Shown: positions 5,886-63,597 of the stretch, in pieces
Layout: each line of letters opens with the position of its first letter
Position numbering within the stretch: the stretch's first letter is position 1
From: Eledone cirrhosa
Lineage: Eukaryota
Direction of reading: 5' to 3'
Assembly (NCBI GenBank): GCA_964016885.1
Contig: OZ024742.1
Location: 47,926,001-47,990,000, forward strand
DNA: 64,000 nucleotides
Translations under genes and position numbers: made by a program
The notes under the pieces: model-generated
Seen by the model: the letters and a program-made list of their open reading frames with translations, nothing else
Databases searched by the model: none
What the model was told of the DNA's origin: nothing

Positions 5886-6165
5886 AGTATTTACGTATCG
5901 AGAAAGAGAAAAAAAGGGGGGATAGGTGATACATATAGTTATTTGCCAAGTAGCGTATGCCAAAGATGCTCGATACTAGTGCCGGCAGTATTAAATATTC
6001 GAAGTGTTAATATTTAGTGGGCTAGAGAGTTAGCAGAGCGTAAGCACGTGGGAAAGTAAAAATTCGGAGAATAGACCGTTAAAACATGTTTATTTAAAAT
6101 ATACCTACGTACGTTTCGCCCAGTTGGGCTTCTCAAGGGCATAAATAATCACAAGTGTTCCTTAT
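5886..6165 (-). mobile_element. Solo pseudo-LTR of the Naiad family at 27144-28890, with HHR motif at 6106-6136
   Basis: Reverse complement matches ~28600-28890 almost exactly and includes TTGAGAA-gccc-aact-gggc-GAAA-CGTACG-TA. Confidence 0.85.
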
Positions 6166-6173
6166 ATATATAT

Positions 6174-6845
6174 ACGCAATGAATTCTCGACGGTTATATT
6201 ACGTAACTGTCTTTATCCCATTGCAGAAACTAATTAGTTGGAGTGAAAATTTTAGTAAGTAAGTTAATTTTTTAAATCTTTTTTTTAAATTTTCTTATTT
6301 TCATATTATTGTTCTGCATCCTCCTGCATTGAACCACCTAGTTACTATGACATAACTTATGTATCTGCTGGCATTAGCTTACATCTGTACGCATATGTTA
6401 GTAGATATACTAAATTCTCTATATTTATCGCCAAATTATTTATTTGTTGAGCAAACCTGCCAAAACCACTACTAATTCATTGGTGTGGTGGTAGACTTCT
6501 GTCATCTTACCATCCCACTCCTTCCGACTAGCCTCAGTGTCACGTGATTGATTCTTTAGAATCTGCCATTTGACCAGAGACAGCGAACTGTTCAGTGCAT
6601 GGAATCCAGTCCCCGCTAGCTGTTCCATCTACCGAATTATTATTATTTTTATATGAGTCCCCGGTCTCCGCGCATTGCCTGGAGACTTAGCTGAGAATAG
6701 ACTCCCTGATGACGCATTGAATTCTCGACGGTTATATTACGTAACTGTCTTTATCCCATTGCAGAAACTAATTAGTTGGAGTGAAAATTTTAGAAAGTTA
6801 ATTTTTTAAACCTTTTTTTTAAATTTTCTTATTTTACGTCCTTCA
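6174..6845 (+). mobile_element. Diverged copy of the 557-bp-unit non-coding family, about 1.25 tandem units (period 538)
   Basis: aattctcgacgg recurs at 6182 and 6720. The sequence is the reverse complement of the 18145-20130 array unit with scattered substitutions. Confidence 0.85.
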
Positions 6846-8163
6846 TATATATATATATATATATATATATATATATATATATATATATATATATATATAT
6901 ATGTGTGTATATATATGTATATATATATGTATATATATATGTATATATATATATGTATATATATATATATGTATATATATATATGTATATATATATGTAT
7001 GTATATATATATGTATGTATATATATATGTATATATATGTATGTATATATATATGTATATATATATATATGTATATATATATATATGTATATATATATAT
7101 ATATATATATATATATATATATATATATATATGTATATATATATATGTATATACATATATGTATATATATATGTATATATATATGTACATATATATGTAT
7201 ATACATATATATATATGTATATATATATATGTATATACATATATGTATATATATATATGTATATACATATATGTATATATATATATATGTATATACATAT
7301 ATATATATATATATATATATATATATATATGTATATATATATATATATATAAATATATGTATATATATATATATATATATATATGTATATATATATATAT
7401 ATATAAATATATGTGTATATATATATATATATATATATACATATATATATATATATATGTATATACATATATATATATATATGTATATATATATGTATAT
7501 ATATATGTATATATATATATGTATATACATATATATATGTATGTATATATATATGTATATATATATGTATATATATATATGTATATACATATATATATAT
7601 ATATATATATATATATATATATATACATATATATATATATATATATATATATATATATATATATATATATATACACATATATATATATATATATATATGT
7701 ATATATATATATATATATATATATATGTATATATATATATATATAAATATATGTATATATATATATATATATATATATATATATATATATATATATATAT
7801 ATATATATATATATATATGTATATACATATATATATATATATATATATATATACATATGTATATACATATATATATATATATACATATATATATATATAT
7901 ATATATATATAAATATATGTATATATATATATATAAATATATGTATATATATATATATATATATATATATATATATATATATATATATATATATAAATAT
8001 ATATATATATATATGTATATATATATATATATATATATATATATGTATATACATATATATATATATATATGTATATACATGTATATATATATATATGTAT
8101 ATACATATATATATATATATGTATATACATGTATACATATATATATATATATATATATATATA
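6845..8163. repeat. ~1.3 kb compound (TA)n microsatellite with TG/CA interruptions
   Basis: Directly visible. It is the source of the spurious IY-repeat ORFs. Confidence 0.97.
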
Positions 8164-9469
8164 CGGATTAACAAATAATAGTTAAATGCAGTCCACTTAG
8201 GTGAAGTCCAGTTATGGTATTCCAGGTAGTGGATGATATTAACGCTTGGCTTGGTTTGACTCAACAAGGCGTTTTCATAGTGATGCTGTGGGTATGCTGT
8301 AATTCCTATGTTGTAAACACTTGGAGTAATAATAAATCAGGAAAGAAGGTTTACATGGTTTGCTATACAAAAAAGTTTTTAATCACATATCTTACATTTG
8401 TTTCACTGAACTGGTATGTCTAGAGATCGCTATCCGCCTAATTTTGCGTCACTCGATCGCCAATACAGAATTATAACCAGTCAGATCATCGGAGCATGCG
8501 AGAATGAAGAAAATACACAGGCAAGAAAAGAAAAGAAAATATGGAGTAGTTATGGCATTCAATTAGCACAATAACAACAACAATTATTATAACAATGCTA
8601 TCAATAAACTATTTAAGGAGATAAATAGTTTATATATCTACGCACACACACACACACACACACACACGCACACATATATATATATAAATATATATACACA
8701 TATATGTGTACATAGACACATACATACACATCAATATACACTCGTACAAAAATATACATAGATGCAAAGAGAAAAGCGTGCTAATTGTAGTTATGGCAAA
8801 AAGAAGGTAAAGTAACATTGTAGTAGTGAAATGAGAAAAACTAGGATCTAGGATCAAATGATTGCAGCAGCTGAGAAGGAGTAAGATTGTTGGTAGATGA
8901 GGTATTTACAGACAATTGTGTGGTATAGACTTGTGAAGGAAATAGTATACTTAATGAATATATTTCTGTGGGTAGTAGGTATCCTAATTTAAAGCTATGG
9001 TCCACCTGGTTCCTTACTACATTTACTTCGTTATATATATATATATATTTATATATATATATATATGTATATATGTATATGCGTGTGTGTGTTTGTGTGT
9101 CTAGGAGGGTTTGTGTGTGTATACGCGCGTGTTTGTGTATATACATACATTTAGACGATGTAGTAATTAAGAAAGTAAGACGTGCTACAGATTTATTCTC
9201 ATATGATATATTCCATTGACTGTTTTACATCTTTGAGCGTATGTTAATTAAAACAATGATAGCCGACGTAATTATATTGTACATTTAAAACAGCTTTATT
9301 TCTACATACCAATTGTTTGTATGAGCCCGTAACTTCTGAGGGAATTGTATGAGTGCCGTACTGACATGCAGCGTATGTGCTAATTAAACCTGGCGAGCTC
9401 ATCTCCTCCCCAGGTCGGAAGACCATAGATTTCTTCCAGGGATTACAGAGAGCGATAGAGCTTGTGGGA

Positions 9470-61679: not shown

Positions 61680-61960
61680 GTGCTGTGACTACTGGATCAC
61701 TATTGGTCGTAAGACTGATGTGGTGTGTGTGGTAACTACTAGAGTTGTGAATACTATTGGTAGTAAGTCTGGTGTGTTATGTTATTGTAACTATTGGAGA
61801 ATTATTGGTAATAAGACATATATATGATGTGATGGCTACTAGAGAACAGTTGGTATGAATACTAATGAGGTGTGATGTCATGAGTACTAGAGAACAATTA
61901 TTTGCGAGACAGATACGGTGTTGGAGTTATTAGTGAATAATTGATTGTAAGACCCATATG
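61680..61960. repeat. Degenerate minisatellite, unit about 40-45 bp
   Basis: Recurring actact(a/g)gag..tattggt..taagac..tgtg. Confidence 0.55.
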
Positions 61961-62289
61961 GTTTTGGGTATACTCAACATTTATGGGGAGTAAAGCTGGT
62001 GTTTAATTTGTTATCACACAACTGAAATGTGTGAATTTATTTTTGTGTTTTATTGCATGTGCCTGAGAAATAAACGGACTGTCCAGTATAATGCCATATA
62101 ATAACGAATGTCTGCTTATAGAATATATATAATTCTGATATATTTTGAAGAGCGTCAGTAATGTACCTATGTTGACAATTACGACCAGATCAATATCTCG
62201 TCAGCTTATCTGTGGCCCTTTCGTTGAGGTTAGACTGAGTAGAATATAAAGTTGCTTATTCATCTTTTGACGCTAAACACCGTCAGTTG

Positions 62290-62790
62290 CAGACTGCGCA
62301 TTGTCATGTGAGATCTCTCTCCACAAAGTTCGATCACCAGCAGCAGTTGTTCAAAGAGCAAAGATCATGTCCAGTCCATAAGTTGACATTGCCAAGCCAT
62401 CTTTTGGCTGGCGGCTTCTCATTCTCTTACCAGCTAAACTTCCTTTCAGGCAGAACCTACTCATGCCATGAGTTGATCGTTTTTATATGACCGTATAGTT
62501 TGAGTACTCTTAACTTGACAGTTGATGTAATTGGTCTAAGGTCGGTAATGTTGAGCAGCTCACTGATACGACAGATACGGTCCCTGAGCCACTTGCCAGT
62601 CATAAGTTTCATGATCTGAAATGTAGAGATATTCTGAAGTGACTTTCTCGTCCAATTAACACACTCAAGACCATATAACACAACTGGTAGGATGTAAGTA
62701 TCAAAGATCTTATCCTTCAAATGATAGAAAACTTGGTTTGATGTTCTTGTCCTTGTTGAAAGTGGCCCAACCTAGAGCGATTCGACATTG
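62290..62790 (-). mobile_element. RTE-type LINE 3' fragment
   Basis: RIALGWATF..KIFDTYILPVVLYGLEC..LKLYGHI. Confidence 0.8.
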
Positions 62791-63597
62791 CTTATTCTTA
62801 AAGACTATGAAATATATGCGTATAAATAGTAGCTGTGCATATTGCATTACACCTCCTGACACGTATATTACTAATCTAATATGTTTTACACATTTAGTCG
62901 CGCTCACACACACAGACAGACACAAACACACACACACACACACACACACACACACACACACACACACACACACACACACACACACACACACACACACACA
63001 CACACACACACACACTCGCGCGCGCTGTATGTATATGTTATATATATATATTAGAAAATGAGGTTTTTTTACAAAAAGAAAAAAAAAACGAGATGTTATA
63101 CACGAGTGAAAGTATAGGGAAAAAAGATGAAATCGAAAATGCAACTGGAGTCTTTTTAAAAATATTTATTTGGTTCCTTTACCGGTTTCGCAGTTCTTGT
63201 GCTTTTCAAAAGTAGAATTAAGATGGAGGGTTTGTGGTTTTTCTCGCATCGTTTATGAATTTATTTTGCAAGATTTCTTATCTGAAAACGTTTGTTGAAA
63301 CAGATATTGTTATACTTTGGAGGGTCATGTTGCTAATACAAACACACAAAAACAATATGTTGTAGGATAGAACAAAGGAAAGACACACACAAAAATAAAA
63401 ACCTAGTCATTGAGGATGTCATATAATGTGTGACGAAAGAGCTGTTACAATATGTAAACAACCTTCCGGTTATCGAACCAACCAAATATCCGGCCGGAAA
63501 TTTATAATAAATTGAAGTGAAAACCACCAGGTGCGTGTGTTTTTATTGCCAACATGACTCTTCCAAAGTATAACAATATATATATATATATATATAA

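Follow-up and report, generated by a model that had tools for sequence, protein, structure and literature searches.

The subject of this analysis is a 64,000-nt stretch of the Eledone cirrhosa genome (contig OZ024742.1, positions 47,926,001-47,990,000), referred to here as the window, and the hammerhead ribozyme motifs that accompany its Penelope-like elements (PLEs). The window lies within a 3.0-Gb genome with chromosome-scale contigs, has a GC content of 35%, and is rich in (TA)n and (CA)n runs and retrotransposon fragments. Twelve of its motifs, inverted twins counted, carry a U3-A8 pair in place of C3-G8; they belong to six families, with two motifs each in families A, B, B2 and E, three in C and one in D (Table 1). 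Another 12 motifs come from three C3-G8 families, and one of these is a U3-G8 mutant copy.

A strict hammerhead descriptor, requiring a stem II of at least 3 bp, the GAAA box, a palindromic stem III and a UH site, yields 14 hits in the window whose palindrome is 4 nt or longer, whereas 30 shuffles gave 0.3 on average. Five of the 14 are AT-only false hits, all from one tandem repeat. An Rfam scan of the window gave no hammerhead among the best 150 of 390 matches at E values up to 10. All ten U3-A8 cores listed in a preliminary description of the window are present, and seven have the full hammerhead layout claimed there, fitting the strict descriptor; the others deviate through a GCAA box (26616), a 74-nt stem II with a CGGTCG palindrome (31652) or a deletion in stem II (41459-41485).

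Table 1. Hammerhead motifs and carrier coding regions in the window (positions counted from its first nucleotide).
Feature	Position	Strand	Details
Family A U3-A8 minimal hammerhead	17817..17854	+	5-bp stem II, CCGG stem III, GUC site; 3' end of Neptune-type PLE
Family A hammerhead, inverted 5' copy of same insertion	12946..12983	-	12834-13289 vs 17965-17512, 98.7% identical
Family B U3-A8 hammerhead, short 3' stub	59889..59918	+	Strict descriptor
Family B U3-A8 hammerhead, stub	63180..63209	-	Strict descriptor; one stem II mismatch
Family B2 U3-A8 hammerhead with GCAA (A13C)	26616..26646	+	Family norm, not decay
Family B2 inverted twin, likewise A13C	26509..26539	-	Motif scan and self-comparison of window
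Family C U3-A8 hammerhead	28633..28663	+	4-bp G-C stem II, CGUACG stem III, GUA site
Family C hammerhead, inverted 5' copy	27201..27231	-	Strict descriptor
Family C hammerhead, separate stub	6106..6136	-	Strict descriptor
Family E U3-A8 hammerhead, Hydra clade	31652..31744	+	74-nt stem II, wobble palindrome CGGUCG as stem III
Family E inverted copy	29228..29320	-	GAAA box mutated; sequence comparison
Family D U3-A8 hammerhead	41459..41485	-	Stem II internally deleted relative to own family; sister of A by flanks
Neptune-type PLE coding region	13572..15744	+	Reverse transcriptase (RT), CX4CX2C linker, GIY-YIG; PF00078, PF01541; frameshift near 15340-15368
Family C Hydra-clade open reading frame (ORF), 5'-truncated	27409..28377	+	CxCX5C linker and endonuclease; open frame of 927-928 aa in full-length relatives
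C3-G8 family 1, five hammerheads in 557-bp tandem array	18337..20331	both	Four minus, one plus: 18408-, 18965-, 19522-, 20080-, 20260+
C3-G8 family 1, sixth motif	6706..6777	+	Same family as 557-bp array
C3-G8 family 2	22597..23064	-	23064(-) intact; 22627(-) is the U3-G8 mutant
C3-G8 family 2, further mutated copies	44564, 45004	+	Same family as 23064(-)
C3-G8 Hydra-clade family F, two hammerheads	57295..58466	both	58412+, 57349-

The core N3-U-G-A-N-N8-A with its 3-8 pair, stem II, the GAAA box and a UH site are present in families A, B, C, D, E and G, and G12, A14, the A15.1-U16.1 pair and H17 are retained across all U-A families. The stem III palindromes are CCGG, CGUACG and CGGUCG, and the likely site of the family E motif at 31652 is the GUA at 31744. 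The family A motif at 17817-17854(+) sits 2.07 kb downstream of the GIY-YIG region, and the family C motif at 28633(+) lies approximately 260 nt downstream of the Hydra-clade endonuclease region. The assignment of these motifs to PLE pseudo-long terminal repeats (pseudo-LTRs), made in the preliminary description, is borne out, as they follow PLE ORFs and occur in both pseudo-LTRs of full-length RT and GIY-YIG elements, at loci L112 (family C) and L270 (family B2).

The first set of carriers is of Neptune type. Twenty loci were fetched by the end of a related Neptune-type ORF, and 15 of them have the family B motif downstream of it; the B2 motif follows intact 784-aa RT-endonuclease frames (L266, L268), and the family G motif follows a similar Neptune-type ORF (L076). 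All four of A, B, G and B2 have the CX4CX2C linker between RT and GIY-YIG, which conforms to the CX2-5CxxC pattern of the Neptune clade. Protein identity among A, B and G is 54-60%; in the main RT alignments the B2 protein is 53-60% identical to A and about 72% identical to G. Families D and B' were grouped with this set by motif and flanks, and no ORF was found for D. Judged by their sequences, A, B, B2 and G form a single Neptune-type lineage, which D and B' join through similar motifs and flanks; the clade name is taken from motifs, and Nematis is a possible alternative.

Family B2 is young and autonomous, with intact 784-aa ORFs and 3' ends that are on average 97% identical over 15 loci. 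The family has 6,309 genome matches, of which 98 of the first 100 have the GCAA box. The copy at L270 has two same-strand motifs 4.8 kb apart. Canonical PLEs are described as single-ORF elements; the B2 element has an additional upstream open frame of 455 aa (L267 954-2318; L270 3907-5271).

The second set of carriers comprises families C and E. Family C is young, its best 150 endonuclease matches being 96-99% identical, and three fetched copies have frames of 927-928 aa with RWK, DKT, CxCX5C, CxxC and CxH and without CCHH, as is characteristic of the Hydra clade (Craig et al. 2021, PMC8557442). The full-length copy at L112 has an inverted 5' copy, a motif at 2532, a 927-aa ORF and a second motif at 5863. 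The family E motif lies downstream of a Hydra-type endonuclease, and this family would belong to the Hydra clade as well, being placed there by thumb and endonuclease similarity only.

The frequency of the U3-A8 pair was assessed in a genome sample of 117 unselected stretches (1.224 Mb, including the window and its neighbours), scanned with a loose descriptor. The sample has 110 hits (60 C-G, 28 U-A and 22 others), against 11 in one shuffle and six in the reversed sequence. The preliminary description had presented U3-A8 as a shared core; the pair is indeed fixed in the families it cited, but it is neither a core shared by all motifs nor the dominant one, given the 12 motifs of C3-G8 families that were overlooked beside the 12 U3-A8 motifs and the excess of C-G over U-A in the sample.

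A descriptor count of 3-8 pairs, proposed at the same time, gives a different balance across the whole genome, where only stem III CCGG with a 7-30 nt spacer was counted and family B dominates: U-A cores number 23,570 (74 in the reversed-pattern control), U-G 225 (63), C-A 283 (41) and C-G 141 (170). U-A thus stands far above the mismatched cores here, whereas C-G is the commoner pair in the sample. Single mismatches amount to about 1% of U-A copies, and many of the mismatched cores listed are mutated copies of U-A families.

Within families, U3-A8 is found in 29 of 30 matched family C copies and in all 12 matched family E copies, which supports the earlier claim that it is not a product of decay. 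Twelve aligned copies of the Neptune-type group all have the same U3, A8 and first core box, although stem II differs among them in both length and sequence while remaining paired; U3-A8 and CCGG are still present where RT identity has dropped to 54-60%. U3-A8 is the state of a family and not the decay of single copies, and it is fixed in its families.

Mismatched cores were also sought at the level of clusters, of which the sample gave 36. Stem I lies outside the descriptor, and the test set comprised clusters with a median stem I of at least two Watson-Crick pairs (8% in random pairings). The 17 that pass include 10 C-G, six U-A and one A-A cluster, with no C-A or U-G (Fisher p 1.2e-4), one U-A cluster being a likely false hit and the families being non-independent; the other 19 (5 C-G, 2 U-A and 12 others) were excluded. 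Mismatched cores are therefore not as common as U3-A8 in either count, although the preliminary description had named such an outcome as one that would refute its claim.

Several apparent exceptions were rejected. One recurrent C3-A8 "family" is the antisense of a LINE (long interspersed nuclear element) RT coding region, a second is a repeat with no stem II, and a third (L068, L069, L139) has no stem II in register and is a doubtful hammerhead. A repeated U3-G8 hit is antisense within the family C coding region. Among the sample clusters, cluster 6 (C-A) is a C3-G8 motif read on its antisense strand and cluster 35 (U-A) is a likely false hit. Purine-3/pyrimidine-8 cores gave 7,430 genome matches against 9,467 in the control; none of the 10 loci inspected is a hammerhead, and no G3-C8 or A3-U8 family was seen in this search.

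The number of origins was addressed with an unrooted tree of 22 Hydra-type thumb and endonuclease rows over 203 columns, four of 26 rows having been dropped as shorter than 100 residues. Family E falls beside two C3-G8 families, J and M (bootstrap 95 and 100), apart from C, and C and E as one clade are rejected in the approximately unbiased (AU) test (p-AU 1e-46). A very long stem II is common to family E and its C3-G8 sisters (74 nt vs 81-90 nt). At L157 a C-G motif follows the E-type endonuclease, and at L241 a C-G/CCGG motif follows the ORF; both motifs come from neighbouring elements and were not used as links.

C3-G8 is taken as the ancestral hammerhead core. Since the Neptune-type families appear to be one lineage and C and E are not one clade, about three swaps to U3-A8 are likely, in the Neptune-type group, in C and in E. 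The earlier figure of about six independent swaps is not supported, as A, B, B2 and G, with D and B', collapse into one lineage. No C3-G8 sister was found near the Neptune-type group, the nearest C-G element being about 30% identical, and this swap is therefore undated.

It is quite probable that these are minimal type I hammerhead motifs in PLE pseudo-LTRs, in which a change from C3-G8 to U3-A8 likely took place about three times, the new pair then likely being maintained by selection on the RNA fold of the elements. This reading rests on the anatomy of the motifs, their placement after PLE ORFs and in both pseudo-LTRs, their fixation within families, the rarity of mismatches and the non-monophyly of the Hydra-clade families. 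The 3-8 pair forms within the active hammerhead fold, and known hammerhead chemistry suggests that a U-A pair would substitute for C3-G8 and position the 2'-OH of nucleotide 8. Within a single tandem transcript, two motifs may then pair via their palindromic stem III and cut slowly after GUA or GUC, probably with the assistance of the element's protein, in a dimer-dependent cleavage that would trim the precursor RNA. In folding predictions for B, C, E and B2, two copies join through stem III while stem II is preserved, and the homodimer is favoured over two separate monomers by 6-11 kcal/mol. Minimal PLE hammerheads have been described as lacking activity in monomeric form and showing weak activity as dimers (PMC4209133).

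A number of observations weigh against this reading. For family A, both the dimer and the monomer are predicted to misfold, with the core buried. Stem I of the U-A families has one to four contiguous pairs, with a median of two (G-U allowed) vs five in C-G families (p 0.049, for families that are non-independent); it is above background, yet short vs the approximately 4-5 bp of minimal PLE hammerheads. The abundant family B2, with its 6,309 motif matches and intact ORFs, carries A13C, and its GAAA box is not intact. Catalytic mutants of an anole PLE do not show reduced insertion in vitro, and no RNA ends were found at the site (PMC11167929). The Hydra tree has 203 columns, long-branch warnings and nine rows whose core state is not known; two C-G comparators are linked to their hammerheads through one or two loci (one locus for J); and the groups of the AU test were named by core state, but after the first tree had been seen.

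A13C is expected from mutagenesis to impair cleavage strongly. The B2 motif is hammerhead-derived and of doubtful activity, and its A13C points to a possible dispensability of cleavage. Because B2 amplified with this change, cleavage is probably weak, and there are probably families that do not depend on it. The preliminary description had read maintained function as cleavage, which is not supported, as B2 reached thousands of copies despite its A13C and the hammerhead of an anole PLE was dispensable for insertion in vitro (PMC11167929).

It is conceivable, although we consider it less than probable, that what the retained hammerhead fold provides is a structural signal, such as a binding or start site for the RT-endonuclease, and not cutting, with U3-A8 and A13C tolerated since shape is what matters. 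The amplification of B2, the short stem I of the U-A families, the needlessness of cleavage for insertion in vitro (PMC11167929), the low in vitro activity of minimal PLE hammerheads (PMC4209133) and the seemingly degenerate core of another abundant Hydra-clade family would all fit such a role, but the 3-8 pairing retained in all lineages is best explained by catalysis, and G12, A14, A15.1-U16.1 and H17 are likewise retained in all U-A families. A related suggestion can be put forward only tentatively: U3-A8 may be a recurrent step towards a weak or non-cutting PLE hammerhead, taken about three times, accompanied by a shorter stem I and extended by A13C in B2, which would be cleavage-dead yet mobile, its fold serving a non-catalytic purpose, for example being recognised by the element protein.

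AT-biased drift, in which C3 became U and G8 became A separately in dead motifs carried along by active elements, is very unlikely and already largely refuted. Both changes are GC-to-AT transitions in a window of 35% GC, and cleavage may be dispensable; against this, no single-change family occurs among the 17 clusters with a stem I, mismatches are confined to about 1% of U-A copies, and the state persists over 40-45% RT divergence with compensating changes in stem II. A single U3-A8 origin followed by exchange of 3' modules between PLE clades is scarcely plausible, for while PLE copies are inserted into or beside one another across the window, neither stem II nor stem III is alike between C, E and the Neptune group, and the very long stem II of E is common to its C3-G8 sisters.

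Several other features accompany these motifs. The 557-bp array at 18136-20352 has one C3-G8 hammerhead per unit, with a 51-nt stem II, an 8-nt palindrome and an inverted end copy, and looks like a non-LTR retrozyme or a set of tandem pseudo-LTRs. A 310-bp tandem array just upstream of the window (L002 165-3086, L059 9235-9855) has 13 C3-G8 hammerheads on both strands and is retrozyme-like. Two more decayed C3-G8 hammerheads, with U4C, are found at 8370-8500(-) and 63690-63725(-), and hammerheads with a very long stem II (81-96 nt) occur in several families (L018 8443, L119 6996, L045 8455, L153 8990). The region at 53113-56174 belongs to an abundant Hydra-type family; in the 15 loci examined, its 3' end carries no more than a degenerate hammerhead-like motif, with an apparent U4A or no clear core, and this reading is uncertain. 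At 37434-40826 there is a GC-rich remnant of an L1/Tx1-like LINE (endonuclease-like region, RT, PF00078), the antisense strand of which resembles a hammerhead core. Finally, 51705-51857 is a near-perfect 150-nt foldback, a piece of which is repeated at 56443-56505, with spurious microRNA-family matches below gathering scores.

U3-A8 in PLE hammerheads has been published before, and the motifs described here are real, functional-looking members of that published kind. A search for this variant in Schistosoma mansoni gave about 1,300 U3-A8 hits in hammerheads of Cercyon PLEs, in addition to about 2,000 with the canonical core (Cervera and De la Pena 2014, PMC4209133); those hammerheads have the same topology, pseudo-LTR position, palindromic stem III and covariation. 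Natural U3-A8 hammerheads with the same compensatory pair were also reported in 2011, cited as active in vitro (Perreault et al. 2011, PMC3088659), and the earlier suggestion of an overlooked ribozyme class is thus not sustained. U3-A8 is a rare variant in that survey, in contrast to its 28 of 110 hits in the genome sample. Unlike Cercyon, the present elements have another host and Neptune-type and Hydra-clade carriers, with about three origins in one genome, and one autonomous family adds A13C.

Family C shares its protein marks and (TA)n context with the Hydra-clade PLEs of Craig et al. (PMC8557442), but it is longer, with 927 aa and a repeat unit of about 3.3 kb vs less than 3 kb; all 25 families listed there are C3-G8, under a descriptor that favoured canonical cores, whereas C and E are U3-A8. 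In the anole Poseidon PLE, cutting by the hammerhead needs protein and the 3-8 pair, and C3G/G8C partly rescues it (Frangieh et al. 2024, PMC11167929); that hammerhead has a canonical core. The literature searched revealed neither Hydra or Neptune elements with U3-A8 nor a PLE family with A13C; Lunse et al. 2017, on dimer cleavage, and Przybilski and Hammann 2007 may list such variants, and the supplements of PMC4209133 may contain additional U3-A8 families. The additions made here are small: U3-A8 in Hydra-clade elements, and a young autonomous Neptune family, B2, that has A13C too.

For this genome, searches restricted to the canonical core miss about a quarter to a third of hammerhead hits. 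The C3-G8 sisters, the U3-A8 families and the family with both U3-A8 and A13C form a natural series, each with young or intact copies, which makes it testable whether PLE hammerheads must cut for mobility. If the tentative suggestion made above is true, B2 would be a naturally occurring PLE that is cleavage-dead and nevertheless highly successful in transposition.

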